From assembly GCA_041687695.1 (NCBI GenBank), contig JAWLBL010000003.1, positions 55,660 to 119,659 on the forward strand: a stretch of 64,000 nucleotides of DNA, given 5' to 3'. This DNA is from Myxococcota bacterium. Its GTDB lineage: Bacteria > Myxococcota_A > UBA9042 > PHBI01 > JAWLBL01. The first letter of the stretch is position 1. Each line of letters opens with the position of its first letter. The position numbers and the translations under genes were made by a program. Under the pieces are notes generated by a model that was not told the DNA's origin, ran no database searches, and worked only from the letters and a program-made list of their open reading frames with translations. Positions 6,271 through 25,521 of this stretch are shown here, in pieces.

Positions 6271-6370
6271 GGCCGCAGCATTCCACGCCGCGCGCCCGCT
6301 GTCAGCTGGATCGGGCCGGATGGAGGTTGGGACGCGATGTGTTAGGTTCGGTGCGCCCTGGAGGTTGTCC

Positions 6371-7002: not shown

Positions 7003-8655
7003 ATGCGCGTGGTGGCGAAGGGTTGTCGTGTGCTCGGGGTGGTCGCCGGCCTGGGGCTGGCCGCGTGTTCGGGCGATGCCCAGGTCCAGAGCGTCGCGGA
7101 CGTCGACGCCGCCGAGACGCCGGACGAGGGCGACGCGGCCGACGACGCTTCGGATGACGCGCCGGACGCCAAGGAGCCGCTGGCCGAGTACCAGTTCCCG
7201 CCGGGGTTCCTGTTCGGCACCGCCGTGGCCGGCTTCCAGGTCGACATGGGCTGCCCGACCCTGCCCGCCAGCGAGTGCGAGGACCCCAACAGCGACTGGT
7301 ACCAGTTCGTCACCTCGCCGGTGACGCTCGAGTCGGCCCAGACCTACCTGGCCGGCCACCCGCCCAGCGACGGCCCCGGCTTCTGGGAGCTGTTCGAGGC
7401 CGACCTGGACCGCGCCGCGGACGAGCTGAACACCAACGCCTTCCGCTTCAGCCTCGAGTGGAGCCGCATCTTCCCGAACGCGACCGACGCCCTCGACGGC
7501 TACGACGCCCTGAAGGCCGCCGCCGACCCGGACGCCCTGGCCAGGTACCACGCCATCCTGGACGCCGCCCGCGCCCGCGGCCTGGACCCGCTCGTCACCA
7601 TCAACCACTACACGCTGCCCACCTGGATCCACGACGGCCCCGGCTGCCACGCCGATCTGGCCGGCTGCTCGCCCCGCGGCTGGCTCGACAAGGACCGCAC
7701 CGTCACCGAGATCGCCAAGTTCGCCGGCTTCGCCGCCCGCGAGTTCGGCGCCAAGGTCGACCGCTGGGCCACCCTGAACGAGCCCTTCGCGGTCCTCTTG
7801 CCCGGCTACATCTTCCCCAGCGCCGAGCGCACCAACCCGCCGGCCCGCCTGATGGCGTTCGACGAGGCCAAGGTCGTCTTCGCCGCCCTGGTCGAGGCCC
7901 ACGCCCGCATGTACGACGCGGTCAAGGCCGCCGACACCGTCGACGCCGACGCCGACGGGGCCGCCTCGCTGGTCGGCGTCGTCTACGGCGCCGCCGCCAC
8001 CGGCCCCAAGGACCCCACCAGCGCCCTCGACAAGGTCGCCGCCGAGAACGTCTTCTACCTGTGGAACATGGCCTACATGAACGCGGTCGTCCTGGGCCAG
8101 TACGACGGCGAGCTGGACGGCACCGCGGTCCCCCGCGCCGATCTGCAGGGCCGCATGGACTACCTGGGCATCAACTACTACACGCGCACCATGGTCGAGG
8201 GCACCGAGGGCGCGACCCTGCCGGATCTGTCGCCGCTGACGACCTTCAACCCGCTGGGCATCTCGGCCTTCAACGACGACCCGCAGGGCCTGCACGAGCT
8301 GATGATGCGCCTGACCGACGCCTTCCCGGGCGTGCCCATCGTCATCACCGAGAACGGCTCGTTCGCCCCCGAGGACAACGGCCCCGAGTACGTCGTGCAG
8401 CACCTGGCCTGGCTGTGGCGCGCCATCCGCGACGGCGCCGACGTGCGCGGCTACTTCTACTGGACCCTGCTCGACAACTACGAGTGGAACCACGGGATGG
8501 ACATCCGCATGGGGCTGTACGCCGTCGGCGACGCGCAGGACAAGCCCCGCACCGCCCGGGCCCACGCCGCCGTCTACGCCCGCATCGCCGACGAGGGCGC
8601 CATCCCTGCGGATCTGGCCGCGCAGCACGGCCCGCCCGAGGAGCCCGCCGAATGA
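7003..8655 (+). CDS. Glycoside hydrolase family 1 (beta-glucosidase-like) lipoprotein
   Basis: Lipobox LAAC, then FPPGFLFGTA, FRFSLEWSRIFP, TLNEP (acid/base), ITENG (nucleophile) and WTLLDNYEW. Confidence 0.93.
   Translation: MRVVAKGCRVLGVVAGLGLAACSGDAQVQSVADVDAAETPDEGDAADDASDDAPDAKEPLAEYQFPPGFLFGTAVAGFQVDMGCPTLPASECEDPNSDWYQFVTSPVTLESAQTYLAGHPPSDGPGFWELFEADLDRAADELNTNAFRFSLEWSRIFPNATDALDGYDALKAAADPDALARYHAILDAARARGLDPLVTINHYTLPTWIHDGPGCHADLAGCSPRGWLDKDRTVTEIAKFAGFAAREFGAKVDRWATLNEPFAVLLPGYIFPSAERTNPPARLMAFDEAKVVFAALVEAHARMYDAVKAADTVDADADGAASLVGVVYGAAATGPKDPTSALDKVAAENVFYLWNMAYMNAVVLGQYDGELDGTAVPRADLQGRMDYLGINYYTRTMVEGTEGATLPDLSPLTTFNPLGISAFNDDPQGLHELMMRLTDAFPGVPIVITENGSFAPEDNGPEYVVQHLAWLWRAIRDGADVRGYFYWTLLDNYEWNHGMDIRMGLYAVGDAQDKPRTARAHAAVYARIADEGAIPADLAAQHGPPEEPAE

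Positions 8656-9126: not shown

Positions 9127-9155
<29 letters not shown>
8652..9155 (+). CDS. Small hypothetical protein with two internally similar halves (DUF6812-like)
   Basis: ATGA overlap with the GH1 stop. The halves GTFHV..FFPLTEVTL and GTLEL..FLVLRQVTL resemble each other. Confidence 0.65.
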
Positions 9156-10509
<1,354 letters not shown>

Positions 10510-10693
10510 GGGCGAGGCTCCTCTCCTTCGGCCGCGAGGGGCGGGACCGTCACCCCAGCTGCTGGGGGGGACCTCCTCGGCGGCGGCTGCGAAGGGAGTA
10601 GGGAGAGCGAGCCCATCGAAACAGGTGGCGGGCGGTCGGTCAAACCAGGGGAGGGCCAGGGGTGTAAGCACCCGGAATACGGACGCTACGGCG

Positions 10694-11827
10694 CTAGGAC
10701 AGGGCCATCTCGAAGCCCGGGTGGGGGGTGCCGAGGTCGGGCGCGCCCAGCGGCGCGTCGGGCAGGGTGACGGACAGCAGGGTCATCGGGGTCCGCTGCA
10801 CGAACAAGCCGCGGAAGGCGGGCGCGAGCGCCGAGCCGCGCGGGATCATGGCGCTCATGAAGTGCAGGCGCCGCTCGCGGAGCGTGGCGTACAGGCCCAG
10901 CAGCAGGTCGCGCAGCAGGGCCGGGTCGTCGCCCTCGATCTCGAGGTGGGTCAAGAAGGCGAAGCGGAAGCAGTCGCCCGGGCGGGGCAGGGGCTGGAAG
11001 CCGGCGACCCGGGCGCCCAGATCCCAGGCCAGGCGCTGCCAGCGCACGCCGCCGTGGTAACCCAGGACGCGGGTGCGCTTGAAGGCGCCGGTGTCCCAGG
11101 GCGCGGCGCAGGCGACGATGCGGCCGGCGCGATCGCGGACGAGGTGGAAGTCCGAGAGCCGAAAGCCGGGCCAGGTCGCCAGGCGCCGGGCCAGCAGGTC
11201 GCCCGAGAAGTCGTAGCCGAAGACGCGCTGGCGGTGGCGGCGGTCGAGGAAGGCGACCAGGGCGTCGAGATCGGCCTCGGTGGCGCGGGTGACCGGGCGG
11301 TCGGGGCGGGGCTTGGGCCGCGTGAACTGGACCGAGGTCATGTCGAAGGGGCAGTGGACGCGGGCGACGGGCTGGCCGGCGCGGGCGCCGTCGCGGCCGA
11401 GCAGGGCCGCCATGGCGCGGCGGTTGGAGTCGATGACCACCGTGTAGAACAGCTCGGCGCCGTGGCGGTCGCGGGCGGCCTCGAGCACGGCGCGGTAGCA
11501 CTCGGGGAACACGCGGGCGCCGCGCAGGGCCGCGGAGAAGCGCAGGTCGCAGAGGTAGCCGGCGGGGCGCAGGGCGCCCAGGACGTGGGCCGGGCGCACC
11601 AGCGCGCTGCCGCAGCCGACGACCTGGTCGTCCTGGACCACCGAGAAGGCCTCGGCGGCGGCCTCGACGTGCATGCGGTGGAGCGCGAAGAAGTCGGGGT
11701 CGCGCTCCTGGGTCATGTCGAGCGCGGCCTTCATGTGGATGTCGCGGAAGAGGGCGCACAGGGCCGCGTCGTCCGCGGGCCGGGCGTCGCGGAGGGACCA
11801 GCCGGGGCCCTGGGCGAGGACGGCCAA
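10694..11827 (-). CDS. GNAT-fold acyltransferase-like protein (probably two GNAT domains)
   Basis: LRDARPADDAALCALF and VTRATEADLDALVAFL are two GNAT-like N-terminal motifs. GYLCDLRFSAALRG resembles motif A. Confidence 0.65.
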   Translation of the reverse strand: MAVLAQGPGWSLRDARPADDAALCALFRDIHMKAALDMTQERDPDFFALHRMHVEAAAEAFSVVQDDQVVGCGSALVRPAHVLGALRPAGYLCDLRFSAALRGARVFPECYRAVLEAARDRHGAELFYTVVIDSNRRAMAALLGRDGARAGQPVARVHCPFDMTSVQFTRPKPRPDRPVTRATEADLDALVAFLDRRHRQRVFGYDFSGDLLARRLATWPGFRLSDFHLVRDRAGRIVACAAPWDTGAFKRTRVLGYHGGVRWQRLAWDLGARVAGFQPLPRPGDCFRFAFLTHLEIEGDDPALLRDLLLGLYATLRERRLHFMSAMIPRGSALAPAFRGLFVQRTPMTLLSVTLPDAPLGAPDLGTPHPGFEMALS

Positions 11828-11833
11828 CCCGGC

Positions 11834-13135
11834 TCAGGCCCGGTCGAGCAGGGCGCGGGCGCGGCGGACGGCTCGCGCGCGGGTGGCGCCGAAGGCGTCG
11901 GCGACCTGGGCGGCCGGCGCCTGGCCGTGGGCGGCGGTGGCGGCGGTCTCGAGGCGAGCGGCGGTGGCGGCCGCCTCGGGGGCCTGGGCGACGGCCTCGG
12001 CCAGCGCGTCGCGGACCGGTTGGCCGCCCTCGGCGAGGCAGAAGGCGATGACGCGCCAGGCGAGGTCGGCGTGGCCCTGCTCGTCGCGGGCGATGGCGCC
12101 CAGGGTGGCGGCGACCGCGGGGTCGGCCGCGCGCGCGTGGGAGGCCTGGGCGCGGGCGGCGGCGGCCCCTTCGCCGAGGGCGCCGTCGGTGAAGGACTCG
12201 GCGGCCAGCCGCGCCAGGCGCGCGATGCGGTCGCCGGTCATCGCGGGGGGCAGGGCGGTGGGCCGCGGGGTGACGCGCAGGCCGCCGTAGGCGCCGGCGA
12301 GATCGAAGGAGAGGGCGGCGTGGCGGACCTCGTCGCGGGCCGAGGCGTGGGCGGCGGCGACCAGATCGCGCGGGGCGCCGGCGGCGGCGAGATCGCGGGC
12401 GAGGCCCAGGAAGGAGGCGACGGACTCGTGCTCGTGGCAGCCGGCGTCGAACCAGCGGTCGGCGAGGGCGGCGCGCTCGACCGGGTCGAGGCGCGTCAGG
12501 TCGACCAGGGCCGGGCCGTCGCGGCGGGCGACCAGGTAGTGGGCCTGGGCGGCGGGGTCGTCCATGCGGAGCGGGCGGCCCTCGATGACGGTGGCGCGGA
12601 ACATGCGCTCGAAGCCCAGGGGGCGGACGACCAGGGCCAGGGTCAGCTCGGCGCCGCGGTCGTCGCCGGCGAAGGGCAGGGTGCCGCCGAGGCGCAGCCC
12701 GAAGGCCATGGCGCTGGCCTCGACGGCGCCGTGGACGCCGTGGGAGAGGCCGACCGGGTCGGGCGTGCGGCCGCCGAAGTCGGCCGAGCGGAAGGCGTAG
12801 CCGACCTCGGTGATGACCGGGACCTGGGGCGAGCCCTGCTCGGGCAGGAAGGTGCCGGCGGGGCCGACGGCGAGGCGGAGGTGCTCGAAGCCGACGAGCT
12901 GGGCGGAGGCGCTGCCGCCGAAGGCCGCCGCGTCGGTGGTGAGCGGGGTGGCGACGAGGTCGAGGCCGAAGACGAAGAAGGTGCGCTGGCCGAAGGACAG
13001 GCCCAGGGACAGGCCGTAGTTCCACGGGATGTGGGTGTCCGGGTCGAAGGCGGCGTGGGCGGGCGCGGCGGTGGCGGTCAGGGCGGCGGCGGCCGTGGCG
13101 GCGGCGAGGTGGCGGCGAGGGCGCGAGCGGGTCAT
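11834..13135 (-). CDS. Secreted protein with C-terminal ferritin-like (di-iron carboxylate) domain
   Basis: Signal peptide ending AHA-A. EHESVASF...DEVRH...GALGE...DEQGH gives two ExxH motifs. Confidence 0.75.
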   Translation of the reverse strand: MTRSRPRRHLAAATAAAALTATAAPAHAAFDPDTHIPWNYGLSLGLSFGQRTFFVFGLDLVATPLTTDAAAFGGSASAQLVGFEHLRLAVGPAGTFLPEQGSPQVPVITEVGYAFRSADFGGRTPDPVGLSHGVHGAVEASAMAFGLRLGGTLPFAGDDRGAELTLALVVRPLGFERMFRATVIEGRPLRMDDPAAQAHYLVARRDGPALVDLTRLDPVERAALADRWFDAGCHEHESVASFLGLARDLAAAGAPRDLVAAAHASARDEVRHAALSFDLAGAYGGLRVTPRPTALPPAMTGDRIARLARLAAESFTDGALGEGAAAARAQASHARAADPAVAATLGAIARDEQGHADLAWRVIAFCLAEGGQPVRDALAEAVAQAPEAAATAARLETAATAAHGQAPAAQVADAFGATRARAVRRARALLDRA

Positions 13136-13277
13136 GCGGGGACTCCCGGGGCGTGGGGTGGCCCGCCGCCAGGTTGCATCGGGCGTGCCAGGCGCCGCAA
13201 GGCGCGCCAGGCGGGAGATCCCGGCGCGGAAGGTGTCAAGTAGGTATACGCTTTGGGCGGCCGGGCCGGCGGAGGTG

Positions 13278-14339
13278 TCAGATCCAGAAGGTCATCTCGT
13301 CGACCCGGGGCTCGGGGGGCGGGGTGGCGCCGCCGGCGGCCGCCCAGTCGCGCAGGGCCTCGATGTGCAGGTGCAGGGTGTCGGCGGGGGTCGAGCTGAA
13401 GTCGGGCGCGCCGTGGTGGCGCAGGGCCTCGCCCTGGATGGCCATGATGTCGACGTCCTGCTGGATGACCTTGCGCGTGTACCAGGGCAATAGACGCGAG
13501 GCGAGCGGGGTCAGGGCGCCGAGCTTGTAGGAGATGAGGGTGAAGACGCGGGTCTCGAAGGGGCGGACCGGGGTGCAGGTCGAGGTGATGACGAAGGCGC
13601 GTCCGCCGCGGTCGGGGTCGCCGAAGACGTAGTCGACCCGGGTGTTGTTGGGCATGTAGAACTTGTCGGTGTGCACCATCGGCAGGCGCCCCGGGTTCAG
13701 GATGCGCTCGGTGAAGCCGATGGAGTCGCGCGGCTGGTCGTAGGTGACGAGCACGCTGTCGGCCGTGCGCTCGACGGTGGTGCGGACGCGCTTTTGGCCG
13801 CGGGTGCGGAACCAGCCCTTGTGGACGAAGACGGTGTGCGGGACGTCCATGAAGTTCTCGACGAGGTGGGTGACCTCGTTGGCGAACATCGTCTCCATGT
13901 AGTAGGCGCCCCAGCCCGGCTCGTCGTGATGGGGCATGGGGAACGGGTCCTTGTCGGGCGGAGCGTCGGGGCCGCCCATCCAGACCCAGACCAGGCCGTC
14001 CTGCTCGCGGGTGGGGAAGGCCTCGAGGCGGCGGTCCGTCGGCGGGCAGGCGTCGGGGCCCTCGGAGGGGACGCCGACGCAGCGGCCCTGGGCGTCGTAG
14101 GTCCAGCCGTGGTAGGGGCAGCCGATCTTGCCGTCGAAGAGGTCGCCGCGGCTGAGCAGGGCGTTGCGGTGCAGGCAGCGGTCGCTCAGGGCGACGGCGC
14201 GGCCGGCGGCGTCGCGCCACAGGACCAGCATCTCGTCCATGACGACGCGGCCCAGCGGCCGACGGGCGGTGACCTGGTGGGACTGGGCGGCGGCGTACCA
14301 GTAGTCCTTGAGCAGCCCGCAGCTGCGGCGCATCGTCAC
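13278..14339 (-). CDS. Rieske non-heme iron oxygenase (alpha-subunit type)
   Basis: Rieske ligands DRCLHR...GCPYHGW. Mononuclear Fe site ENFMDVPHTVFVH...QQDVD. Confidence 0.95.
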   Translation of the reverse strand: MTMRRSCGLLKDYWYAAAQSHQVTARRPLGRVVMDEMLVLWRDAAGRAVALSDRCLHRNALLSRGDLFDGKIGCPYHGWTYDAQGRCVGVPSEGPDACPPTDRRLEAFPTREQDGLVWVWMGGPDAPPDKDPFPMPHHDEPGWGAYYMETMFANEVTHLVENFMDVPHTVFVHKGWFRTRGQKRVRTTVERTADSVLVTYDQPRDSIGFTERILNPGRLPMVHTDKFYMPNNTRVDYVFGDPDRGGRAFVITSTCTPVRPFETRVFTLISYKLGALTPLASRLLPWYTRKVIQQDVDIMAIQGEALRHHGAPDFSSTPADTLHLHIEALRDWAAAGGATPPPEPRVDEMTFWI

Positions 14340-16009
14340 GAGGGCCTCCGGGCGTCGAGCTGGGTCGACAGGGACGCGACGCCCAGCGGCTGGGCGCCCG
14401 GGAAGACGGCGTCCCAGTCGAGGCCGGCGTCGAGGGGGGTCGGCTTGACGTCGCCGGCGCGGACGCCGCGCTGGACCTGGCGCGCGACGTAGCGGGCCCA
14501 GCCGTCGGTGACGCGCACGGCGTCGGGGACCCCCAGCTGCCCCAGGCGCCGGCAGTAGTCGTAGTGGGGGTTGTCGCGCAGGCCGGCCTCGAGGCGACCC
14601 AGGGCGTCGCGCACGGCGGCGGCCGGCGCGTCGGTGTCGACGTACAGGCGGTAGCGGGGCGGGGTGGACGCCAGCGGGGCCAGCAGGGCGAAGCGGTGGG
14701 CGAGGCCGGCCTGGTCGGCGGCGCGGGTCAGGGCCTGGCCGACGTGGTGGGCGTTGAGCTTCTCGCCGGCGCGGTCGCTGCCCTTGTCGAGGCGGCCCTC
14801 GAAGCGGACGCGCGGGGTGCGGCCGACCAGGCCGACGCAGCGGACGACGTCTTTGAGGTGATAGCGGTACAGGCCGCCGCCGGTGGTGATGAGCGGGGAG
14901 TAGGCGCCGCCGGGGCGCAGCTCGTGGGCGAGGAGCGGCCGGGCGGCGGGGCGGTCGAGGTCGATGAACTCGAGGAAGTGGCTGGTGACCGCCAGGACGG
15001 CGCCGGAGGCCTGCGGGGACTCGTCGTCTCCATCCCCTGGGGTGGCGTCGGAGCCGGCGCCCCAGGGGATGGAGACGACGCCCTCGGTGGCCAGCAGGCC
15101 CTTGGGCTGCAGCGGGGTGGCGGGGAACCAGCGGCGCAGGTCGGCCAGCTGATCGCGGGCGGGGCCGTCGGCCCAGCAGGAGACGAGGGCGAGGCGCGGC
15201 CAGAGCAGCTCGCCCGTGGGGGGCGCGCCGTCGGGGACGGCGCGGCGCAGGGCGCGGCGGCGGGCGGGGGGCAGGTCGGCCAGCAGGGCGTCCCAGTCGT
15301 CGGCGATGGCCTGCATCAGCAGGGTCAGGAAGCTGGGGCTCCAGACCGAGATGAGGCCCAGGTCGTCGGCGGCCAGCAGCTCGCGGCAGGTGCGGCGGCG
15401 CCAGGCGGTGACGTCGGGCAGGCGGGCGACCTCGGGGGGGACGGCCAGCAGGCGGCGCAGGGCCAGGCGCTCGAGGGGGCCGAAGTACTCGGTGTCGTCG
15501 TCGAAGCCGATGGGCAGGCCGCCGGCGGTGCGCTGGGCGGCGCGGGTGGCGGGCGAGACGGACCAGTAGCTGCGGGTGCCGCGCAGGGCGGGGCGGCGGG
15601 CGTGGAGGTCGTGCAGCCAGGCGCCGGTGGCGGCCGAGAACTCGGCGCGCAGGGCGGCGGTGTAGGGGACGAGCTTGGCGGCGGCGCTCGAGCCGCTCGA
15701 GCGCTCGAACATCAGGGCGGGGGCGCGGGTCAGGACGCGCTGCTCGCCGGCGGCGACGCGGGAGATCCAGGGAGCCAGCGCGTCGTGGTCGGTGACGGGG
15801 ACGCGGTCCTGGAAGGCGGTGACCGAGTCGATGGCGGAGAAATCGTGGCGGCGGCCGTAGTCGGTGTCGGCGTTGGCGGCGACGGTCTGGCGCAGGCGGG
15901 CGGCCTGGGCGGCGGCGGGGGCGCCGAGGGCCTGGCGGAAGCGGCGGGCGGCGGGGGCGAGCGTGGCCTGCCAGACGGACTGGAGGGCGTGCAGGGCGAG
16001 GTCAGCCAA
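14336..16009 (-). CDS. GH3 family acyl-acid amido synthetase (adenylating enzyme)
   Basis: NADTDYGRRHDF, SSGSSAAAKLVP (P-loop), LLATEG, TTGGGLYRYHLKDVV and GEKL. Confidence 0.9.
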   Translation of the reverse strand: MADLALHALQSVWQATLAPAARRFRQALGAPAAAQAARLRQTVAANADTDYGRRHDFSAIDSVTAFQDRVPVTDHDALAPWISRVAAGEQRVLTRAPALMFERSSGSSAAAKLVPYTAALRAEFSAATGAWLHDLHARRPALRGTRSYWSVSPATRAAQRTAGGLPIGFDDDTEYFGPLERLALRRLLAVPPEVARLPDVTAWRRRTCRELLAADDLGLISVWSPSFLTLLMQAIADDWDALLADLPPARRRALRRAVPDGAPPTGELLWPRLALVSCWADGPARDQLADLRRWFPATPLQPKGLLATEGVVSIPWGAGSDATPGDGDDESPQASGAVLAVTSHFLEFIDLDRPAARPLLAHELRPGGAYSPLITTGGGLYRYHLKDVVRCVGLVGRTPRVRFEGRLDKGSDRAGEKLNAHHVGQALTRAADQAGLAHRFALLAPLASTPPRYRLYVDTDAPAAAVRDALGRLEAGLRDNPHYDYCRRLGQLGVPDAVRVTDGWARYVARQVQRGVRAGDVKPTPLDAGLDWDAVFPGAQPLGVASLSTQLDARRPS

Positions 16010-16772
16010 CGGCGAGGGCCTTTCGGGGGCGGGTGAGGCGGCGGCGGGCGAGCTTGGCGAGGTAGCTGGAGGCCAGATCGAGGCCGATGTGGCCGAGGCA
16101 GACCAGCTCGTCGCCGTGGGCGTGGCCTGGGTTGCGCTGGGCGAAGTAGGCGACGTCGGGGGCGGCGAGCAGGGCCGGGTCGATGGGGGCGACGTCGTCG
16201 CGCAGGCGGCCGGCGGGGCTGGAGAAGCGGAGCAGGCCGAGGTCGGGGCGCCAGGCGTCGCCGAAGCGCTCGCGGGCGAGGGCGTCCATGACGGCGGCCT
16301 GCCAGGCGGGCGTGGGGCGGTCGTGGCGGGGCCAGTGCTCGGGGAAGTTGCGGGTGAGCAGGAGGTAGGTCTTGTAGCCCTTGGTGATGAGGAACCAGTA
16401 GACGGGCGTCAGCGGGTGGGCGGCCTTGACGCGCATCGTGTAGGCGAGGAAGGCGCGCTGCAGGGCGGTCTGGCCCCAGTAGGCGCGGTCGATGACGGTG
16501 TCGCCCGAGAAGACGCAGACGACGCGGCGGCCGTGGACGGCGCGGTCGTAGACCTGCAGGGTCGAAAAGCCGGCGAGGCCGGCGGCCGGGTCCTCGAGCA
16601 GGATGACGTGGTCCTTGGCGGCGAGATCGCGCTGGAAGGTGGGGCGGTCGACGTCGGCGTAGTAGCGGGCGAACAGGGCCCAAAGGGCGTCCTGGACGTG
16701 GGGCGTCAGGGCGCGGACGGGGACGGTGCGGGCGCGCAGGCGGCCGAGGGTGGGGCGGGGGTCGGTGGTCAT
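16002..16772 (-). CDS. GNAT-like hypothetical protein adjacent to GH3
   Basis: C-terminal part of ORF 16002..18311, starting MTTDPRP at an ATGA overlap with the radical SAM stop. Contains GFSTL, FSGDTVIDRAYWG and YWFLITKGYKTY. Confidence 0.7.
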   Translation of the reverse strand: MTTDPRPTLGRLRARTVPVRALTPHVQDALWALFARYYADVDRPTFQRDLAAKDHVILLEDPAAGLAGFSTLQVYDRAVHGRRVVCVFSGDTVIDRAYWGQTALQRAFLAYTMRVKAAHPLTPVYWFLITKGYKTYLLLTRNFPEHWPRHDRPTPAWQAAVMDALARERFGDAWRPDLGLLRFSSPAGRLRDDVAPIDPALLAAPDVAYFAQRNPGHAHGDELVCLGHIGLDLASSYLAKLARRRLTRPRKALAVG

Positions 16773-18430
16773 GCGAGGGCCAGGGCGCGGGCGGCGTCGC
16801 GGTCGAGGCGGCGCTGGGTGAAGCGGCGGAGGGCGCCGAAGGTGGCCTTGACCAGCGGGGTCGAGGCGGCGACGTCGCGCTGGAACGCGAGCAGGGCGGG
16901 GCGGTCGGCCATGTCGTAGGTGAGGATGCCGGGGTAGAAGAGGCCGCCCTGCAGCGCGTGGCCGCCGTGCATCATCTGGTCGTCGATGTGGCGCATCCAG
17001 CGGCCGACCTCGGTCGAGGCCATGGTGGCGTGGCGCCAGTAGGGGGCCGAGGAGCGGCCGCCGGTGGTGGTGACGAGGTCGAAGCGGGCGCGGCTGTCGG
17101 GTGAGAGGATGGGGACGTACTCGACGCGGGTGTTGAAGGGGGCGGCGTAGTAGAAGTCGGGCGGGGCGTCGCGGAGGAAGGCGACGGTCTCGCGGACGGT
17201 GGTCGGGGTCTCGCCCGGGAAGCCGACGATGACGGTGACCAGGGTCGTCAGGCCGGCCTCGCGGCAGTGCAGGAGGCCGCGGCGCATGGCCTGGACGGTG
17301 GCGCGCTTGTTCATGTGGTCGAGCATGCGCTGGCTGCCCGACTCGACGCCGATCTGGACCTGGTGGCAGCCGGCGGCCTTCATCAGGCGGACGGTGTCGA
17401 GGTCGTCGAGGTCGTCGGCGCGGGCGTAGCAGATCCAGCGCAGGCGGGTGCCGTCGGCGAGCAGGCGCTCGCAGAGCTCGACGAGGCGCCGCTTGGGCAT
17501 GGTGAAGAGGCTGTCCAAGCAGGTGACGTACTCGGCGCCGTCGTCGGCGAGGGCGCGCCAGTCGGCGGCGATGCGGGCGGCGCTCTTGGTGCGGAACTTG
17601 GTGTCGTCGAACAGGTACGGGTAGTTGCAGAACGAGCAGCGGTAGGGGCAGCCGCGGACCGACTCGTAGTGGACCATGCGGAAGCGGCGGCCGTGGACGG
17701 CGCCGGCGAGGCGCCAGTCGGGCTCGGGCAGGTCGTCGAGGCTGAGCGAGCGCGGGACGCCGCTGTGGAGGACGTCGGTGGCGCCGGCGCGCTCGAGGCG
17801 GCCGCCGTCGGGCGGGGTCAGGCGCTGGTAGCCGCTGCGGATCCAGGCGGCGAGGGCGGGGACGAGGCGCTCGCCGTAGCCGACGGCGAGGACGTCGAGG
17901 CCGGGGCAGCCGGGCCATTCGCGGTGCAGGATGCCGGCCAGGGCGCCGCCCGCGACCACGCGGTTCCAGGGCCGGTCGAGCATGCGCACCATCGGCTCGA
18001 GCTCGCTCAGATCCCGCAGCAGCGTGGTCGAGGCGAAGACGCAGTCGGTCGCGCCCAGCAGGCGCTCGCGGCGCGCCGGGTCGGCGTACAGCTCGGCGTA
18101 GGTGGCGACCTCGAAGCCCAGCCCCTCGTCGCGCAGCAGGGTGCACAGCGAGACCTCGGTCAGCTCGGGCGCGTCCAGGGTCGGGTCCTCGGTGAAGAAG
18201 CGCTCGACCGCCGCCCGATAGGGCGCGCGCCGGAACGCAGCCGACCGCCTCAGGCGTTGGCTCGCCACCAGGTGCTCGGCCGCCAGCACCTTGTACTGCA
18301 CGTCCAGCCACGCCCCGCTCGACGCCCGGAACGCCTCGACCTGCTTCCTCACCGCCTGGACGAGCGAGCGCTCCTTGACGCTGAGCAGTCCCCCGGTCAC
18401 CACCAGGACCCTGGGTTGTCGCTGAATCAA
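16769..18430 (-). CDS. B12-binding-type radical SAM protein (class B methyltransferase-like)
   Basis: SVRGCPYRCSFC (CxxxCxxC), VVAGGALA, GYGE, DSLF, IGVESGSQRMLDHMNK and IVGFPGET. Start is uncertain (TTG 18430 chosen). Confidence 0.9.
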   Translation of the reverse strand: MIQRQPRVLVVTGGLLSVKERSLVQAVRKQVEAFRASSGAWLDVQYKVLAAEHLVASQRLRRSAAFRRAPYRAAVERFFTEDPTLDAPELTEVSLCTLLRDEGLGFEVATYAELYADPARRERLLGATDCVFASTTLLRDLSELEPMVRMLDRPWNRVVAGGALAGILHREWPGCPGLDVLAVGYGERLVPALAAWIRSGYQRLTPPDGGRLERAGATDVLHSGVPRSLSLDDLPEPDWRLAGAVHGRRFRMVHYESVRGCPYRCSFCNYPYLFDDTKFRTKSAARIAADWRALADDGAEYVTCLDSLFTMPKRRLVELCERLLADGTRLRWICYARADDLDDLDTVRLMKAAGCHQVQIGVESGSQRMLDHMNKRATVQAMRRGLLHCREAGLTTLVTVIVGFPGETPTTVRETVAFLRDAPPDFYYAAPFNTRVEYVPILSPDSRARFDLVTTTGGRSSAPYWRHATMASTEVGRWMRHIDDQMMHGGHALQGGLFYPGILTYDMADRPALLAFQRDVAASTPLVKATFGALRRFTQRRLDRDAARALALA

Positions 18431-18504
18431 ATCACGCTCCGCGCACGCTCGCTTTCGAGAGCCGCCATGATAGAGATTGGTCGCGTCCCTAGGAAGCCCC
18501 ACCC

Positions 18505-19533
18505 GTGAACGCCGCTCCCGCCCCGATCCCTCCGCCCGCCGACGCCCTCGAGGCCGCCCTCGACGCCGCCCAGGACGCCGACGTCGCCGCCGGCCCTCGC
18601 CTGAGCCGCGCCTCCGTCCCCCGCGACCTCCTCGGCAAGGCCAGCGTCCCCGCCCTGCTGCGCTGGGCCGCCCTCGACTGGCTCCTCATCGCCGTCTGCT
18701 GGCTCAGCCTCGCCCTCACGCCGCCCTGGCTCTACCCCGCCTGGGTCTTCCTCGTCGCCGGCCGCCTCCACGCCCTCGGCGTCCTCCTCCACGACGCCTG
18801 CCACCTGCGCCTGCCCCGCAAGACCCCCGCCGCCCGCCTCCTCGAGCTCCTCGCCGGCTACCCCATCGCGTCCACCCTCGACGCCATGCGCTACCACCAC
18901 CTGCGCCACCACCGCGACAGCGGCATGCCCACCGACCCCTACTTCAAGGCCTCCGTCCGCGACAGCCGCCCCATGTTCCTCCTCATGTGGCTCCGCAGCC
19001 TCCTCCTCGTCCCCTGGTGGACCCTCCGCGCCCCCTTCGGCCTGCTCGCCCTCGCCGCGCCCCCCCTCCGCAACTTCTACGGCCGCGCCTTCCTCCAGGA
19101 CCGCTCCGGCGACGACCTCACCCACCACCCCGAGCTCCTCGCCTGCGCCCGCGCCGAGCTCGGCCAATTCGCCTTCCAGGCCGCCGTCCTCGCCGCCGCC
19201 CTCGCCTGGCCCGGCCCCGTCACCTTCGGCTACCTCGTCCCCGCCGTCGTCACCGGCCTCCTCGCCGGCTACCGCATCCTGCTCGAGCACGACTACACCC
19301 CCGCCGCCGACCGCAAGATGACCACCATCCTGGCCACCACCCAGGACCACCACCTCGCCCCCTGGGGCCGCCTCTTCTTCGCCCCCCACCACGTCGGCCA
19401 CCACGTCGTCCACCACCTCCACCCCCAGGTCGCCTTCTGGCACCTCCCCCGCCTGCGCGCCTGGTACCGCCAGCACCACCCCTCCCTGTACCCGCCCGAG
19501 TACCCCAAGAACCTCCGCCGCGAGGCCGCGTGA
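18505..19533 (+). CDS. Membrane fatty-acid desaturase family protein 1
   Basis: Three His boxes HDACH, HHLRHH and HHVVHH, plus hydrophobic segments. Confidence 0.93.
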   Translation: MNAAPAPIPPPADALEAALDAAQDADVAAGPRLSRASVPRDLLGKASVPALLRWAALDWLLIAVCWLSLALTPPWLYPAWVFLVAGRLHALGVLLHDACHLRLPRKTPAARLLELLAGYPIASTLDAMRYHHLRHHRDSGMPTDPYFKASVRDSRPMFLLMWLRSLLLVPWWTLRAPFGLLALAAPPLRNFYGRAFLQDRSGDDLTHHPELLACARAELGQFAFQAAVLAAALAWPGPVTFGYLVPAVVTGLLAGYRILLEHDYTPAADRKMTTILATTQDHHLAPWGRLFFAPHHVGHHVVHHLHPQVAFWHLPRLRAWYRQHHPSLYPPEYPKNLRREAA

Positions 19534-20879
19534 TCCGCAGGATCCTCGCCACCCTGCTCCGCCGCGCCCACCGCCGCCTCGAGGCCGCCGACGCCGCCCC
19601 CCGCGCCGCCCAGGCCGCCGTCCACCGCCGCCTCGCCCGCGCCCTGGCCGGCACCCAGGCCGCCGCCCTCCACCCCGCCGCCGCCTGGGCCGACCTCGAC
19701 GCCTGGCGCGACCATGTCCGCCTCACCACCCACGCCGACTACGCCCCCCTCATCGCCCAGGCCCTCGCCGCCCCCCTCCCCGGCGCCTTCGAGCGCCGCC
19801 CCACCGCCGCCTTCGCCACGTCTACCAGCGGCGCCAAGCACACCCCCTACACCCGCGCCCACTTCGCCAGCCTCCGCGCCTTCCAATCCGCCGTCCTGGG
19901 CCAGGCCCTGGTCGGCCGCGATCTGACCGCCCTCCTCGACGGCCGCGCCCTGGTCGTCCAAGGCAGCCTCGAGCTCGCCCGCACCCCCGGCGGCGCCCTG
20001 ACCGGCTACTCGACCGCCCTCATGGTCGCCACCGCCCCCTGGATGTTGCGCCGCAGCATGAGCCCTCCGCTCGAGGTCCTGCGCGCCCCCGACCCGGCCA
20101 CCCGCCTGTCCGGCGTCCGCGACGCTCTCGTCACCGCCCGCCCCACCGCCCTGTCCGGCATCCCCGAGTACGTCGTCGGCGCCCTGCGCCACCTGCTCGC
20201 CGGCCCCGACGCCGAAGCCGTCCGCGACGCGCTGGCCGCCGTGCGCCTGTACGCCTGGTCCGGCACCCCGCTGGGCCCGCTGCGCGCCTTCCTGCAGGCC
20301 CACCTCGCCCCCGGCGCCGCCCTCTTCGACGCCGTCAGCGCCACCGAGGGCCCGCTGGGCGTGCAGGCCGAGGCCCCCGGCGTCTACCGCCTGGCCCTGC
20401 CGCACGTCCTGCTGCTGTTCGTCGCAACCGACGACCCCGACCACCGCGCCCTCGCCCACCAGCTGACGCCCGGCCGCGACTACGCCGTGCACCTGGGCAG
20501 CTTCTCGGGCCTTTCGGGCTACGCCACCGGCGACCGCGTCCACGTCCTGTCGACCGACCCGGTGCGCTTTGCCCTCCTGCCCCGCCAGCTCGACGTAGAG
20601 GCCGCCTGGCGTGCCCTCGGCCCCGAGACGACCGACTTCCGGCTCTTCCGCGACGCCACGGCCGGCCTCACGGCCCTGATCGAGCGCCCCAGCGCCCCCG
20701 ACGCCGCCGCGCTGGCCACCCTGGCCGCGCTGGCCGGCGCCTCGACGGCCACCGCGCACCTGCTGCCCCCCGGCCACCTCACCCGCGCCGCCTTCACCTT
20801 CAACCCCCTGGGCCTGGTCAAGCTCCCCTGGCTCTCCTCGCGTCCCGACCTCGCGGCGCGTATCCTGGCCCTGCCATGA
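19530..20879 (+). CDS. Second, divergent GH3 family protein
   Basis: Starts at a GTGA overlap. Contains LTTHADYAPLI, TSTSGAKHTPYT, LSGIPEY, VSATEG and GLSGYATGDRV. Confidence 0.75.
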   Translation: MIRRILATLLRRAHRRLEAADAAPRAAQAAVHRRLARALAGTQAAALHPAAAWADLDAWRDHVRLTTHADYAPLIAQALAAPLPGAFERRPTAAFATSTSGAKHTPYTRAHFASLRAFQSAVLGQALVGRDLTALLDGRALVVQGSLELARTPGGALTGYSTALMVATAPWMLRRSMSPPLEVLRAPDPATRLSGVRDALVTARPTALSGIPEYVVGALRHLLAGPDAEAVRDALAAVRLYAWSGTPLGPLRAFLQAHLAPGAALFDAVSATEGPLGVQAEAPGVYRLALPHVLLLFVATDDPDHRALAHQLTPGRDYAVHLGSFSGLSGYATGDRVHVLSTDPVRFALLPRQLDVEAAWRALGPETTDFRLFRDATAGLTALIERPSAPDAAALATLAALAGASTATAHLLPPGHLTRAAFTFNPLGLVKLPWLSSRPDLAARILALP

Positions 20880-21871
20880 CGACCGCCTCCCCCACCGCCC
20901 TGCGCGCCCAGGCCCGCGAGGGCGCCTACCCCGTCCCCGGGCGCCTCAACCTGGCCCTCACCCTGGCGCAGGTCGGCGGCTCGGTGGCCCTGCTCTGGCT
21001 GGCCTCGCACGCGACCAGCGCCCTCGTCCTCGCCCTGGCGGTGGCCGCCTTCGCCTTCCTGATGCAGATGGGCTTCTCGCTCATCCACGAGGCCGAGCAC
21101 GACAAGCTCCACCCCAGCCGCCTCGTCAACGACGCCCAGGGCGTCCTGCTGGCGGCCCTGTTCCCCGGCAGCTACCAGTTCATGAAGGTGGCCCACCTGG
21201 CCCACCACCGAAAGAACCGCGCCGACGCCGAGCTGGTCGACTACTGGCGCCCCGGTGAGCGGCCCTGGCTCAAGGGGCTGCAGTACTACCTGCTCATCTG
21301 CGGCCTGGTCTGGGTGGGCGTCCCGCTGCTCACCGTCGTCATCGCCCTGACGCCCGAGGCGTTGCTGCGCCGCAACAATCGGCCGGCCGGGGCCGCGCCC
21401 GCGGACGAGACCAAGGCCTCGTCGGCCCAGCTCTACCTGGCTTTTTTGCGCGAGGCCCGTCCCTGGCGCGTCCGCGCCGAGCTGGCCTTCACCCTGGCCC
21501 TGTGGTGGGCCCTGTTCGCCGGGCTGGGGCTGACCTGGTCGGCGGTCGGCTGGTGTTACGCCGCCTTCGCCTTCAGCTGGGCCAGCCAGCAGTACATCTA
21601 CCACATCCGCACCCCGCGCCATCTCGTCGAGGGGGCGCTGAACCTGCGCCTGCACGCGCCGCTGCGCCTGCTGTACCTGAACTTCAACTACCACCTGACC
21701 CATCACCGCGCCCCCAAGGTGCCGTGGCTGCACCTGCCCGCCGCGACCGGCGAGCCGCCGTCCCAGCCGTACTGGCGCACCTACCTGAGGCTGTGGGCCC
21801 CGCCGCAGCCCGTGGCGATGGCCCACCCGGTCGAGCACCAGACCAAGGGGCCGCTGCCGCCGCGCGCGTGA
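20876..21871 (+). CDS. Membrane fatty-acid desaturase family protein 2
   Basis: His boxes HEAEH, HLAHH and NYHLTHH. ATGA overlap with the upstream gene. Confidence 0.93.
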   Translation: MTTASPTALRAQAREGAYPVPGRLNLALTLAQVGGSVALLWLASHATSALVLALAVAAFAFLMQMGFSLIHEAEHDKLHPSRLVNDAQGVLLAALFPGSYQFMKVAHLAHHRKNRADAELVDYWRPGERPWLKGLQYYLLICGLVWVGVPLLTVVIALTPEALLRRNNRPAGAAPADETKASSAQLYLAFLREARPWRVRAELAFTLALWWALFAGLGLTWSAVGWCYAAFAFSWASQQYIYHIRTPRHLVEGALNLRLHAPLRLLYLNFNYHLTHHRAPKVPWLHLPAATGEPPSQPYWRTYLRLWAPPQPVAMAHPVEHQTKGPLPPRA

Positions 21872-21887
21872 GCCGCAGGCGGGGCGT

Positions 21888-22059
21888 CCGAGGCCGAGAG
21901 CGTGGCCGTGGCGGACCGGAGGCCGTGGCCGTGGCCGTGAGCCGTGGCCGAGGCCGTGAGCCGTGGCCGAGGCGGTGGCCGTGGCCGCGAGCCGAGGCCG
22001 TGAGCCGTGGCGGAGGCGGTGGCCGTGGGCGTGCCGTGAGCCGTGGCCGAGCCTGGCCG
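21888..22059. repeat. Degenerate (GCCGTG/GCCGAG)n hexamer tract
   Basis: Repeated gccgtg, gccgag and gccgtgagccgtggcc units fill the gap between two convergent genes. Confidence 0.85.
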
Positions 22060-22968
22060 TCAGGTCGCTGCGCTGGCCTGGGCGCGTAGCCAGGCGGCGA
22101 CGGCGCGCCACAGGGGTTGGCTGGCGGTCGAGGTGACGAGGCCCATGTGGTCGGGCGGGCGCTGGGCCAGCTCGGGGAGGTCGCCGCCGGGGCCGAGGCG
22201 CCAGCCGTGGCGGTGGGGCAGGCGGGCGCCGAAGGCCAGGGCCGCGGCGGGGCGGGCGAGCAGGCGGTCGCCGTCGCTGGAGACGTGCAGGACCGGGCAG
22301 CGCACGGCCTCGAGGCCGGCGTGGTAGTCGAAGCCGTCGCGGGCGTGCCAGCGGCCGGTGAAGGCGAAGCCGCACAGGTCGCGCCAGTACTCGGGGGCCT
22401 CGTCGGCCGGGCCGATGCGCAGCCGGCGCGCCGGCAGGTGCCCCGCGGCGCGGACCAGGCCGGTCGACAGGCGCAGGACGGAGGCCTTGGCCGCCCACAG
22501 GAGCGGCGAGGGCTCGAAGCGGCGCGCCCAGAGGCCGACGCCCACCGCCGCGAAGGCCGCCACCGGCGCGTCGGGGTGCCGCCCCAGCCAGGCCAGCGCG
22601 GTGTGGCCGAACAGGCTGTGGCCCAGCAGCGTCACCGGGCCGGCGTCCAGGCCTCGCGCCAGCTCCAGGTAGATCGCCGTGTCCGCCACGAGGTCGTCGT
22701 AGCCCCAGCGTCCGCCCTCGCGCGGGGTCGGCCCGCTGGCGCCGTGGCCGCGCAGATCGGGCACCAGCACCCGCAGCCCGGCGTCCACCAGCGCGCCCGC
22801 CAGGCTGGGCCGGTCGGGGTGCGCCAGGGTCCGCCGGTCGGCCATCATCGCGTGCCCGGCCACCACCACGCCCGCCGGGGTCCCTGCGGGCGCGTAGTCC
22901 AGCACGCTCAGCCGCCAGCCGTCGGCGGCGCGCAGCGTGTGAGTGGCCGGCTTCGGCAGCGTCGTCAC
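22060..22968 (-). CDS. Alpha/beta hydrolase
   Basis: LRAADGWRL, PDLRGHGAS, nucleophile elbow GHSLFG, SDGDRL and DHMG. GTG start overlaps the CapA stop. Confidence 0.85.
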   Translation of the reverse strand: MTTLPKPATHTLRAADGWRLSVLDYAPAGTPAGVVVAGHAMMADRRTLAHPDRPSLAGALVDAGLRVLVPDLRGHGASGPTPREGGRWGYDDLVADTAIYLELARGLDAGPVTLLGHSLFGHTALAWLGRHPDAPVAAFAAVGVGLWARRFEPSPLLWAAKASVLRLSTGLVRAAGHLPARRLRIGPADEAPEYWRDLCGFAFTGRWHARDGFDYHAGLEAVRCPVLHVSSDGDRLLARPAAALAFGARLPHRHGWRLGPGGDLPELAQRPPDHMGLVTSTASQPLWRAVAAWLRAQASAAT

Positions 22969-23885
22969 GCCGCGCCGCCCGCCGCGAAGCGCACTCGGCA
23001 CACCCGTGGGCCTCCGCGGTCCAGCCGCAGCTCGCGCAGCGCCACCCGCGCCAGCGCCGGCGCGCCGTCGACCTCGGTCAGCGACAGCTCGAGCAGCGCG
23101 CCCTCGCCCATGTCGCGCAGCTTCACCTCGGTCGCGAAGTTCCCCAGCGACCAGGCCACCACCCGCCCGTCGTCCAGCCGCTCGAGCGGCTGCGGCAGGT
23201 GGCTGTGGTGCCCCGCGATCAGCGCGTAGCCCGACGGCACCCGCGCGCGCTGCCCCGCCCGGGCCCGCCGCTCGAGCTCGTGCCCCCAGTGCGGGAACGC
23301 CAGGTGCACCCCCGGCTCGGCCGGAGCGCCGGGGTCGCGCCGCGCCACCATGGGCGCCGGGCCGTTGGCCCACTCGGTCCACGCGGTGACCGTCACGCCA
23401 GGCCGGAGCGTCACCCGAGGCCGCGCGGTGGCCCCGACGTGCGCGAAGCCGCCGGCCTCGAGCCGCCGCAGCGTCGCCTCGAAGGCCTGGGGCCCGTAGT
23501 CCGGCGCGTGGTTGTTGGCGACGCCCAGCACCCAGCGCGAAGGCGGCGCCAGGGCGGCCAGCCGGTCGAGCACGCTGGGCAGGTGCTTTTGCAGGAACGG
23601 GAACCACGGCGCGTCGGTGAAGACGCCCTCGAGGTTGGCGACCACGTGGTCGGCCCGGCCGATGGCCGCCGCCACGTCGGGCGCGACCTCGAGCCGCCGC
23701 CACATCAGCGGCATCACGTCGCCCAGCACCACCACCCGCGCGGTCACCGGCGCCTCGGCGGCCAGCACCACCTCGGCGTCCAGCGCGCCCGCCTTCAGCT
23801 CGGGCGTCGGCGCGCCGGCCCACATCCGCCACGCGAAGCCCGCCAGCTCACGCGCCGGGTACGGGCTCCGGGGCAGGCGGATCAC
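22965..23885 (-). CDS. CapA/PGA_cap metallophosphoesterase family protein
   Basis: GDVM, NLEG, ANNHAPDYG, PHWGHE, GHHSHLPQ and WSLGNF. Confidence 0.85.
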   Translation of the reverse strand: MIRLPRSPYPARELAGFAWRMWAGAPTPELKAGALDAEVVLAAEAPVTARVVVLGDVMPLMWRRLEVAPDVAAAIGRADHVVANLEGVFTDAPWFPFLQKHLPSVLDRLAALAPPSRWVLGVANNHAPDYGPQAFEATLRRLEAGGFAHVGATARPRVTLRPGVTVTAWTEWANGPAPMVARRDPGAPAEPGVHLAFPHWGHELERRARAGQRARVPSGYALIAGHHSHLPQPLERLDDGRVVAWSLGNFATEVKLRDMGEGALLELSLTEVDGAPALARVALRELRLDRGGPRVCRVRFAAGGAA

Positions 23886-25435
23886 TTGCCGGCGTTGGAG
23901 GCCGCGTCGCCCGCCTGCGCCGTCGGGGCGGCGTCGGGCGCGGAGGGCGCCTTGGGCTTGAACTTGTCGGGGTTGGCCTTGTACTCGGCCCGCCACTCGC
24001 CGAAGTACTTCTCGACGTTCGCGGCGTACTCGTCGCCCGACTCCTCGAGCAGCACCACGATCTGCTGCACCTTGGCGTCCAGCTCGATGGCGTCCAGCTG
24101 ACCGGCGGCGTGCTCGGCCTGCGCCTTGGCGACAAGATCCAGGCCCTGCGACGCGTTGGCGGCGAGGCGGCCCAGCGTCAGCTCCTCGCCCAGGAAGTCG
24201 TTCACCGAGACGTCTTCGGGCTTGCCGACCAGCTTGGCCAGCTCGTCGAGCTGCGGCTTGGCCTCGGCGCCCGCGGTGGCCTTGAGGCAGATGATGCTGA
24301 TGGCCCGCACGATGCGGTTGGGGTCGGCGACGCGCTTGGCGAAGGTGGGCGCCGCGGCCTTGGCGTGCCCGTGCTTGCGGAGATCCAGGCACAGGTCGAG
24401 CGCCGACTTGGCGGGGTCCTCCTCGGCCTGGTCGTAGATCTTGTCGTCGGCGAACGCGGTCAGCACCTCGTCCAGCTTGGCCGGCCCCTCGATCTGCACC
24501 AGGCTGACCGCCGCCAGCCAGCGGTCCTGCGGGTTGCTGCCCTTCATGACGTCGAGCAGCTCGGCCGACAGCGCGGCCGGCTTGGCCTTGACCGCCGGGT
24601 CCTCGCCCATCTCGATGGCCGCGTTGAAGGCCGCGGCGCGGATCTCGCCGTCGAGCTGGTCGTTGCGGTACAGCCGCATCAGGTAGGCGGCGGCCGCCGG
24701 GGTCTTCATGTTGCGCACCAGCTCGACGTGGTGCAGCTGCACGCCGATGCGCTCGTGGGTGAGCTCGAGGCCGCGCAGCAGCAGCTCGAGGGCCTGCGGG
24801 TCGCCGCCCTTGGCCAGGTACTCGGCCATGCGGTCGACGATGAAGCCGTGGCTGACCAGGATGGCCGCGCCCTGCCAGCCGTACTTGCCGAGGTCCGCGA
24901 TCTGGCCCGAGGTGATGCGCTGGCCGATCTTGTCCTGCACCTCGGCCTGCGGCGTCTCCCAGGTGATGTCGCCGAAGGTCCACGCCGCCACGCGCTGCTG
25001 GACCTGGTCCTTCTGCTCGGCCGTCAGGTAACGGTCGAGCATCATCATCAGCGCGTCCTTGGCGTCGTACTGGGCCTCGCTGCGCTTGTCGACGTGGTCG
25101 ACCAGCTCACGGAGCAGGCCCGCGACCACCGCGTCACGCTGGTCGCTCATGTCGTCGAGCATGTTGCGCACGCGCATCGGCTGCCCGCGCTCGACGACGA
25201 CCTCGAGCCCGCGGATGCGCGTCTCGAGCGGCTGCTTCGGGTCGGTGACCACCTCGGTCATCCGCTCGAGGCCGATCTCGTTGTGCGTCCACAGCTGCAG
25301 GTCTTCTTCCGTGACCGGCCCGTTGCACGCGGGCGACAGCGCCGCAGCGGACAGCATCGAGAGGCCCACGACCGCCCGGCCCACGCGGGCCGCGCGAGCG
25401 GGCAGGCGGGTCAGCGGGTTCCAGCGCAGCGACAT
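23882..25435 (-). CDS. Alpha-helical (HEAT/ARM-like) hypothetical lipoprotein
   Basis: Lipobox LSPAC, long amphipathic helical sequence and strong coding-type codon bias. Confidence 0.7.
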   Translation of the reverse strand: MSLRWNPLTRLPARAARVGRAVVGLSMLSAAALSPACNGPVTEEDLQLWTHNEIGLERMTEVVTDPKQPLETRIRGLEVVVERGQPMRVRNMLDDMSDQRDAVVAGLLRELVDHVDKRSEAQYDAKDALMMMLDRYLTAEQKDQVQQRVAAWTFGDITWETPQAEVQDKIGQRITSGQIADLGKYGWQGAAILVSHGFIVDRMAEYLAKGGDPQALELLLRGLELTHERIGVQLHHVELVRNMKTPAAAAYLMRLYRNDQLDGEIRAAAFNAAIEMGEDPAVKAKPAALSAELLDVMKGSNPQDRWLAAVSLVQIEGPAKLDEVLTAFADDKIYDQAEEDPAKSALDLCLDLRKHGHAKAAAPTFAKRVADPNRIVRAISIICLKATAGAEAKPQLDELAKLVGKPEDVSVNDFLGEELTLGRLAANASQGLDLVAKAQAEHAAGQLDAIELDAKVQQIVVLLEESGDEYAANVEKYFGEWRAEYKANPDKFKPKAPSAPDAAPTAQAGDAASNAGK

Positions 25436-25492
25436 CGTCTCTCCTCTTCGGACACCCGCGTCGACGCCTGCGGACGGGGGCCACGGAGGCGG

Positions 25493-25521
25493 ATGATCCG
25501 GCGCGCACTTCGGGGTGTCAA
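25493..25521 (-). promoter_or_regulatory. Possible sigma70-type promoter for the 25435 operon
   Basis: Minus strand TTGACA-17 bp-GATCAT. The -10 is imperfect. Confidence 0.35.

Follow-up and report, generated by a model that had tools for sequence, protein, structure and literature searches.

A widely shared GH3 ligase and GNAT-fold gene set in a Myxococcota bacterium and its predicted fatty-acyl amide lipid product

What does a group of GH3, acyltransferase-like, Rieske, desaturase and radical SAM genes make when no polyketide synthase (PKS) or nonribosomal peptide synthetase (NRPS) stands among them, and which of the neighboring genes belong to it? The question is raised by a 64,000-nucleotide (nt) stretch of a Myxococcota genome (assembly GCA_041687695.1, contig JAWLBL010000003.1, positions 55,660 to 119,659; this whole stretch is called the window), in which the original prediction had placed a ten-gene system making a modified acyl amide, either a jasmonoyl-type signal or a membrane lipid. 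We found that nine genes recur together in other genomes and that three of them are the core of a set shared across phyla. The cluster is predicted, with a probability of about one half, to carry out PKS/NRPS-independent synthesis of a membrane-associated or exported fatty-acyl amide lipid that is then tailored. The nine genes, in window coordinates, are:

10694..11827, minus strand: gene A, tandem-GNAT, N-myristoyltransferase (NMT)-like acyltransferase, 377 amino acids (aa), core gene
13278..14333, minus strand: gene C, Rieske non-heme iron oxygenase, 351 aa (a GTG at 14339 is another possible start), tailoring
14336..16009, minus strand: gene D, GH3 acyl-adenylate/amide synthetase, 557 aa, core gene
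16002..16772, minus strand: gene E, protein with a single GNAT-fold domain, family without a name, 256 aa, core gene and best marker
16769..18430, minus strand: gene F, class-B-type radical SAM enzyme, 553 aa from a TTG at 18430, tailoring
18505..19533, plus strand: gene G, membrane di-iron enzyme with His boxes, a desaturase or hydroxylase, 342 aa, tailoring
19530..20879, plus strand: gene H, second GH3, rare and divergent, 449 aa, first nucleotide motif shortened
20876..21871, plus strand: gene I, His-box membrane desaturase-family enzyme, 331 aa, tailoring
22965..23885, minus strand: gene K, CapA/PGA_cap metallophosphoesterase (PF09587), 306 aa, travels with G-H-I

A scan of GTDB genomes with an alignment of E confirmed 97 relatives, and the counts given here rest on the best 80, around each of which up to 10 kb was fetched on either side (55 of the 80 loci span at least 15 kb). 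Of these E loci, 60 hold D (in 46 it directly follows E), 49 hold A, 33 hold C, 15 hold I, 13 hold G and 5 hold F; H and K were each found in one, and B and J, two further genes of the window that are described below, in none. Homologs of the cluster genes co-occur in records of Myxococcota, Bdellovibrionota, Planctomycetota and Gamma- and Betaproteobacteria, and the co-occurrence of E, D, A, C, G and I across phyla is far beyond chance, which bears out the conserved synteny that had been proposed. Elsewhere in the phylum, 28 of 400 other genomes had A; among 20 loci fetched around A, some of which duplicate E-anchored ones, E is present in 9 and one or more of E, D, C and G in 13. The core of E, D and A was missed by the original prediction, as were the NMT-like nature of A and gene K. 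The E family counts 2,468 representatives (50% identity) at an E-value of 0.001 or less, and a search of a plasmid collection found E in 12 records. The short contig that carries a homolog of E (56%) at L018:2419-3138 is assigned to an archaeon of the Thermoplasmatota and could be misbinned. D and A are frameshifted in locus L013, and D of genome G408 has an in-frame stop; these may be assembly errors.

The limits of the cluster differ from those first drawn. The ten open reading frames (ORFs) A to J all exist, with a third-position GC of 0.9-1.0 (coding-type), and the genes A, C, D, E, F, G, H, I and K are found together in two other genomes, G408 and G409, giving a nine-gene subtype seen in three genomes including the host. 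The proposed extent was thus right for most of its genes; it omitted K (22965-23885) and included B and J. K adjoins G-H-I in both G408 and G409, and neither K nor an H orthologue was found in G410, G018 or G239. H is rare: a protein search returned two matches including H itself, none of the 400 other genomes gave a match, and neither did a metagenome scan with an H alignment; the copies in G408 and G409 are full-length and 48-51% identical, and the order is always G-H-I. F orthologues occur in 5 of the 400 other genomes (three of them from one genus), and all 5 also have A, against 28 of 400 overall. The remaining features of the region are:

11834..13135, minus strand: gene B, ferritin-like protein with a signal-peptide-like N-terminus, judged an insertion outside the pathway
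18431..18504, no strand: divergent intergenic region between F and G, 74 nt
21901..22060, no strand: intergenic hexamer array of about 26-27 copies between the convergent genes I and J
22060..22968, minus strand: gene J, alpha/beta hydrolase with Ser, Asp and His in place, 302 aa, probably a passenger

B, which had been counted as a member, has only weak Pfam matches under the cut-off and is also absent from the 20 A-anchored loci. We judged it to be an insertion and not a pathway member because of its signal-peptide-like N-terminus, its position splitting the C-A pair (A directly follows C in 16 of the 23 loci with both, and also in G408 and G409) and its dispersed paralogue family, of which G408 holds 17 scattered copies. 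The hydrolase J, supposed to close the cluster, is the last gene of a coupled minus-strand run of HEAT-repeat gene, K and J with 4-nt overlaps; it was found in one of five cluster-bearing genomes, there apart from the cluster and beside unrelated genes. J is probably a passenger, possibly a non-orthologous acyltransferase. The HEAT-repeat gene (23882-25521) coupled to K and J has upstream of it the only sigma-70-like site of the region, and was not seen adjoining K in G408 or G409.

The two arms diverge from a gap that measures 74 nt, within the predicted limit of about 75 bp, and locus L006 shares this divergent arrangement of G and F. Overlaps of 4 nt (F/E), 8 nt (E/D), 4 nt (G/H) and 4 nt (H/I) couple the genes of each arm; the all-overlapping left arm that was proposed holds for F/E and E/D, and the D/C junction is either a 4-nt overlap or a 2-nt gap, set by the start chosen for C. 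In the 74-nt gap a promoter and terminator scan gave nothing beyond chance and no sigma-70 consensus. Each cluster gene is single-copy at high identity in the 7.97-Mb host genome, where the two GH3 genes are the only ones, and the closest named homologs are mostly in Myxococcota and Deltaproteobacteria records, which suggests a host of the Myxococcota type.

The window proteins were searched against Pfam and NCBIfam, and 12 of them were scanned against the NCBIfam equivalogs, none of which was reached at its cut-off. No PKS, NRPS, carrier protein or Rieske reductase was found by Pfam among the cluster ORFs, as anticipated for PKS and NRPS. Of the family names first assigned, Pfam supports those of A, C, D, G, H, I and J; B and the B12 domain of F stay below the cut-off, and E, with no match, is a GNAT by its predicted fold. 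Catalytic or metal motifs are intact in C, G, I, F, J and K.

D has all three GH3 Pfam domains (N, middle and C) over the cut-off and keeps all three nucleotide motifs, at 104-112, 306-309 and 379-387, as defined in PMC12493201. With the D family profile, plant GH3.15 and GH3.12 score 123 bits and JAR1 scores 112 (E-values 1e-34 to 1e-26). D thus shares the fold and motifs of the plant enzymes and differs from them in showing no preference for the jasmonate clade and in standing in a bacterial operon; no lipoxygenase or cyclase lies among the cluster ORFs, and the idea of a jasmonoyl-type signal finds no support here. H matches PF03321 (E-value 4.9e-8) with GH3_C not detected; its second motif is kept, its third is kept in part and its first is shortened. 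The characterized bacterial GH3 is OlsH, which converts fatty acid, ATP and ornithine to N-acyl ornithine (PMC12493201); a 2026 review places OlsHI in one planctomycete only and expects other GH3 substrates (PMC12971839). Compared with OlsH/OlsI of Singulisphaera acidiphila (PMC12493201), the window cluster likewise has a GH3 with three nucleotide motifs, no PKS or NRPS, an alpha/beta hydrolase nearby and a probable amide-lipid product. It differs in that the partners of its GH3 are two GNAT-fold proteins rather than the OlsI hydrolase or the OlsG methyltransferase described there, and in its extensive oxidative and radical tailoring. No conserved hydrolase partner like that of OlsH/OlsI was seen in the 80 E loci, where J is absent and unrelated hydrolases recur in subsets only. 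The best reading of these sequence comparisons is that the cluster may work like OlsH/OlsI and yet not be a member of that system, since the score lies under the family cut-off and the partner gene differs.

The two acyltransferase-like proteins set this cluster apart from OlsH/OlsI. A matches PF00583 (E-value 2e-5) and has no NMT Pfam match, and its predicted fold aligns end to end with yeast NMT including the C-terminal tail (Z 22.8, rmsd 3.9, 316 residues aligned, model 1-377 on chain 70-455); all rows listed by Foldseek for A are NMTs. It differs from eukaryotic NMT in having about 10% identity with no significant sequence match, and in being encoded in a lipid-type operon with nothing that points to a protein substrate. 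The base in NMT is its C-terminal carboxylate. The acidic residue 373 of A keeps its distance of exactly four residues to the C-terminus in every one of 35 aligned homologs, and this fixed tail position suggests, by analogy, that A may share the carboxylate mechanism. E has no Pfam or NCBIfam match and is predicted to be a single GNAT (pLDDT 93.5, best Z 12.8, with many GNATs tied), so that the model gives it no specific nearest relative; a protein atlas look-up named only GNAT or hypothetical clusters. A predicted complex of D and E scored 0.12 against a mark of 0.32 and was counted neither for nor against.

A link between the two arms comes from E fusions. Among the best 150 of the 2,468 E representatives, 18 longer proteins were scanned, and E was found fused to MMPL (2), MFS, PAP2 with an I-type desaturase, a G-type desaturase, UnbU-UnbV, a cupin and the N-terminal domain of Lnb, a lipoprotein N-acyltransferase domain (for example P0130, PAP2::I-type desaturase::E; P0266, E::G-type; and P0239, E with UnbU-UnbV). 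These fusions tie the two arms of the window cluster into what would be one pathway, sited at the membrane beside lipid exporters. A protein combining NQR2/UnbU, FG-GAP and ASPIC/UnbV occurs in 16 of the 80 E loci (L008, L009, L011, L014, L019-L022, L033, L038, L048, L053, L061, L062, L077 and L080) and is absent from the window cluster; its domain names resemble those of enediyne cassette genes.

The recurrent neighbors in the 80 E loci form three sets: a Rieske and desaturase set, often with MMPL, fatty-acid hydroxylases, PAP2 or the UnbU-UnbV fusion; a multi-radical-SAM set, in which the other B12 radical SAM enzymes number two to five; and an EmrAB efflux set (10 loci). The lipid context includes MMPL in 7 + 5 loci, fatty-acid hydroxylases, more desaturases, PAP2 and LolA-like proteins. 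Burkholderia arboris carries a Rieske-type version and a Citrobacter plasmid a radical-SAM-type version. In a tree of A (38 rows, with type labels taken from the neighboring genes) the three types form clades with support of 100/100 (Rieske/desaturase), 100/98 (efflux) and 95/93 (multi-radical-SAM), and the window falls in the Rieske clade, which spans four phyla. L013 (frameshifted), L016, L063, L065, L066, L070, L071, L073 and seven loci with no recovered A ORF were left out, and L050 was labeled Rieske-type from its G-A pair, its short contig showing no C. The D and E trees, made with FastTree only and holding four radical-SAM rows, do not separate that type (4 changes for 4 rows). Kin share labels, so the split in the A tree is a correlation; since only the A tree follows the tailoring set, we infer that A may meet the tailored part of the molecule.

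Among the tailoring enzymes, C matches PF00355 and VanA_C with its Rieske and mononuclear-iron motifs intact, and its closest solved relatives are DdmC and SxtT, in the N-terminal half only. G (PF00487) has intact His boxes and as best NCBIfam match the GntB arginine hydroxylase at 60 bits against a cut-off of 380; it had no match among solved sequences. I also matches PF00487. F has a CxxxCxxC motif at 261 and PF04055 over the cut-off; its B12-binding PF02310 match reaches 21.1 bits against a cut-off of 32.1, and in its orthologues this domain is below the cut-off in 2 of 5 and undetected in 3 of 5. With the class B radical SAM enzymes PhpK, AprD4, TsrM and CysS, F may share a B12-binding-like domain before the radical SAM domain; it differs in lying far below every equivalog cut-off (the best, PhpK family TIGR04479, 165.6 bits against 600) and in carrying extensions of its own at both the N- and the C-terminus. 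Among solved proteins the best relative is AprD4, a non-methylating apramycin enzyme that is a dehydratase by its model name, and the host genome encodes B12-dependent mutases. Metagenome matches of F (56 loci) were distant radical SAM enzymes only, at 23-36% identity, and were dropped; an idea of P-methylation and a phosphonolipid was set aside because its sole basis was one match below cut-off. FAD/NAD/2Fe-2S reductases lie near F or G-H-I in two genomes (L091:17399-18589 and L202:16374-17996) and are candidates for the missing electron donor.

Taken together, these observations agree with the earlier proposal of one PKS/NRPS-free pathway with a modified acyl amide as the most likely product. 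In the reading that we prefer, a fatty-acyl amide lipid would be built at the inner face of the membrane and then tailored. D would, in the manner of OlsH, activate a fatty acid with ATP to an acyl-adenylate and form an amide with an amino acid or other amine; A would place a second acyl group from acyl-coenzyme A (CoA) or acyl-acyl carrier protein (ACP) onto a free amine, with its C-terminal carboxylate as the base; and E might carry out a further acyl transfer next to an exporter. G, I and C would add double bonds or hydroxyls, with C borrowing a reductase encoded elsewhere, F would make a methyl or other radical change, and H and K would provide a second ligation and the removal of phosphate from an intermediate. 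We infer all substrates and the order of the steps, and this detailed order is doubtful.

A number of observations weigh against this reading. Neither a transporter nor a reductase nor a carrier protein is encoded in the cluster itself. The OlsH NCBIfam model gives 44.6 bits for D and 55.1 for H against a cut-off of 620, so that the substrates of D need not be a fatty acid and an amino acid; the first motif of H is not only shortened but variable among its three copies, and H therefore may not adenylate. The likeness of A to NMT is structural only (the profile E-value of about 0.6 is not significant), and the tandem GNAT MAB_4324 ties with NMT as a match of A (Z 22.1). The E fusions are single predicted proteins, some of which may be read-through errors. 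The nine genes of G409 are spread over three contigs, and F is unlinked in three genomes of one genus. Seven of the 20 A loci, the weakest ones, have no partner genes, and E occurs without D or A in the fetched DNA of Aquabacterium/Burkholderiales loci L072, L074-76, L078 and L079 and of L169, L095 and L096. Because E is found alone in several loci (it is solitary in several from Burkholderiales and Azospirillum) and the weakest A loci lack partners, E-D-A is a core but not an obligate unit.

The same chemistry could instead yield an exported diffusible metabolite or signal, an N-acyl amino acid that is cyclized or oxidized to an oxazole, oxazolone or enamide type of product. We regard this as a possibility to be taken seriously, if tentatively; it fits the efflux type best, where E-D-A stands with EmrAB in 10 Pseudomonas loci. 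In Acinetobacter baumannii (L166) the genes run from a LuxR-family regulator through amidase, EmrA, EmrB, E, D and an outer-membrane channel to A. Two deletion primers published for amfAB (PMC10812440) match this locus, one of them inside E, which identifies it as amfAB (A1S_1772-1773). According to that report, AmfAB exports no antibiotics and helps the cells to grow at low pH (PMC10812440). The locus resembles the window in holding E, D and A, which together with the channel gene directly follow the pump genes; it differs in having no tailoring genes, and the published study deals with the pump only and not with the enzymes. The channel gene (PF02321), in L166:5105-12784, comes after E and D and overlaps its neighbors; PMC10812440 states that the amfAB operon has no outer-membrane channel, and A1S_1769 is listed as tolC-like in PMC11784087. 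Literature searches with the A. baumannii locus tags gave expression mentions only. Further points in favor of an exported metabolite are AurF-like and P450 enzymes in other versions of the cluster. A desaturase-like oxazole synthase has reportedly been described, and no gene-level description of pimprinine or indolyloxazole was found in the literature searched. Desaturase homologs hydroxylate and aromatize heterocycles in janustatin (PMC11755721). For the window, however, the efflux type is a separate A clade, the window type accompanies MMPL, PAP2 and fatty-acid hydroxylases, and an exporter is missing from the window, as are resistance and regulator genes from the cluster.

An unlikely alternative is that the cluster acylates and modifies a peptide or protein, with A acylating an N-terminus as NMT does and the radical SAM enzymes and oxidases acting on a ribosomal peptide. 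The NMT-like fold of A with its C-terminal tail, a version with as many as five B12 radical SAM paralogues and the E::Lnb_N fusion would agree with this. Near the clusters, however, the 2,933 candidate small ORFs of 86 loci include none that is conserved from genus to genus; those that are shared are shadow frames, confined to Pseudomonas or to Aquabacterium. The recurrent neighbors scanned include neither a peptidase nor a peptide exporter, and the membrane desaturases and PAP2 point to lipids. Slightly less probable again is the remodeling or degradation of foreign (prey or host) lipids or amides, in which D would activate, C and the di-iron enzymes oxidize and the GNATs detoxify. Many carriers of the cluster are predators, the closest solved relatives of C include catabolic demethylases, and amidases stand beside some versions; the recurrent set, however, has no beta-oxidation, uptake or reductase genes, and the B12 radical SAM enzymes and exporters fit synthesis. 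A chance neighborhood of unrelated genes, which does hold for B and probably for J, is highly improbable as an account of the whole and is ruled out for nine of the eleven genes by conserved co-occurrence, nine-gene recurrence and fusions.

Left of the cluster are an amidase (4717-6384), a family 1 glycoside hydrolase (7003-8655) and a Ser/Thr kinase (9127-10671); amidase-family genes also flank the cluster in L009, L020 and L166. A second hexamer array lies at 28429-28590, and a strict pattern finds 3 arrays in the genome; the array between I and J is thus not specific to the cluster. At a distance, a 233-base near-perfect tandem duplication (61149-61648) lies near an ORF at 59116-60258, around which there are also 21- and 32-base arrays (59369-59492 and 60523-60640). 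A search of sequencing runs gave one run, at a share of 0.06, and listed no RNA holder.

We found no description of the gene set in the sources searched, which did not cover subscription papers, bioRxiv supplements or MIBiG, in keeping with the earlier view that the combination is uncharacterized. Apparently it is a widely shared, uncharacterized set for GH3-dependent synthesis of an amide-lipid type with an NMT-like enzyme. More tentatively, and less likely than not, E-D-A might stand at the center of a so far undescribed bacterial class of di-acyl amide lipids or signals, in which a GH3 ligase and a bacterial counterpart of NMT act on a small-molecule amine and three tailoring cassettes are swapped; the plain form would then be the cargo of AmfAB, and the nine-gene form, with its second GH3 and phosphoesterase, the most elaborate member. 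This work redraws the boundaries, defines the nine-gene subtype that includes H and K, and adds the split in the A tree, the E fusions and the identity of the amfAB locus. The gene set represents a widespread orphan pathway without the core synthases that rule-based cluster finders use, and it has named cultured carriers in Pseudomonas benzenivorans DSM 8628, Pseudomonas segetis, Pleionea sediminis and Paraglaciecola sp. It offers a bacterial enzyme of NMT architecture and what would be a second bacterial GH3 function besides that of OlsH; for an efflux pump of unexplained role it suggests a candidate endogenous substrate.

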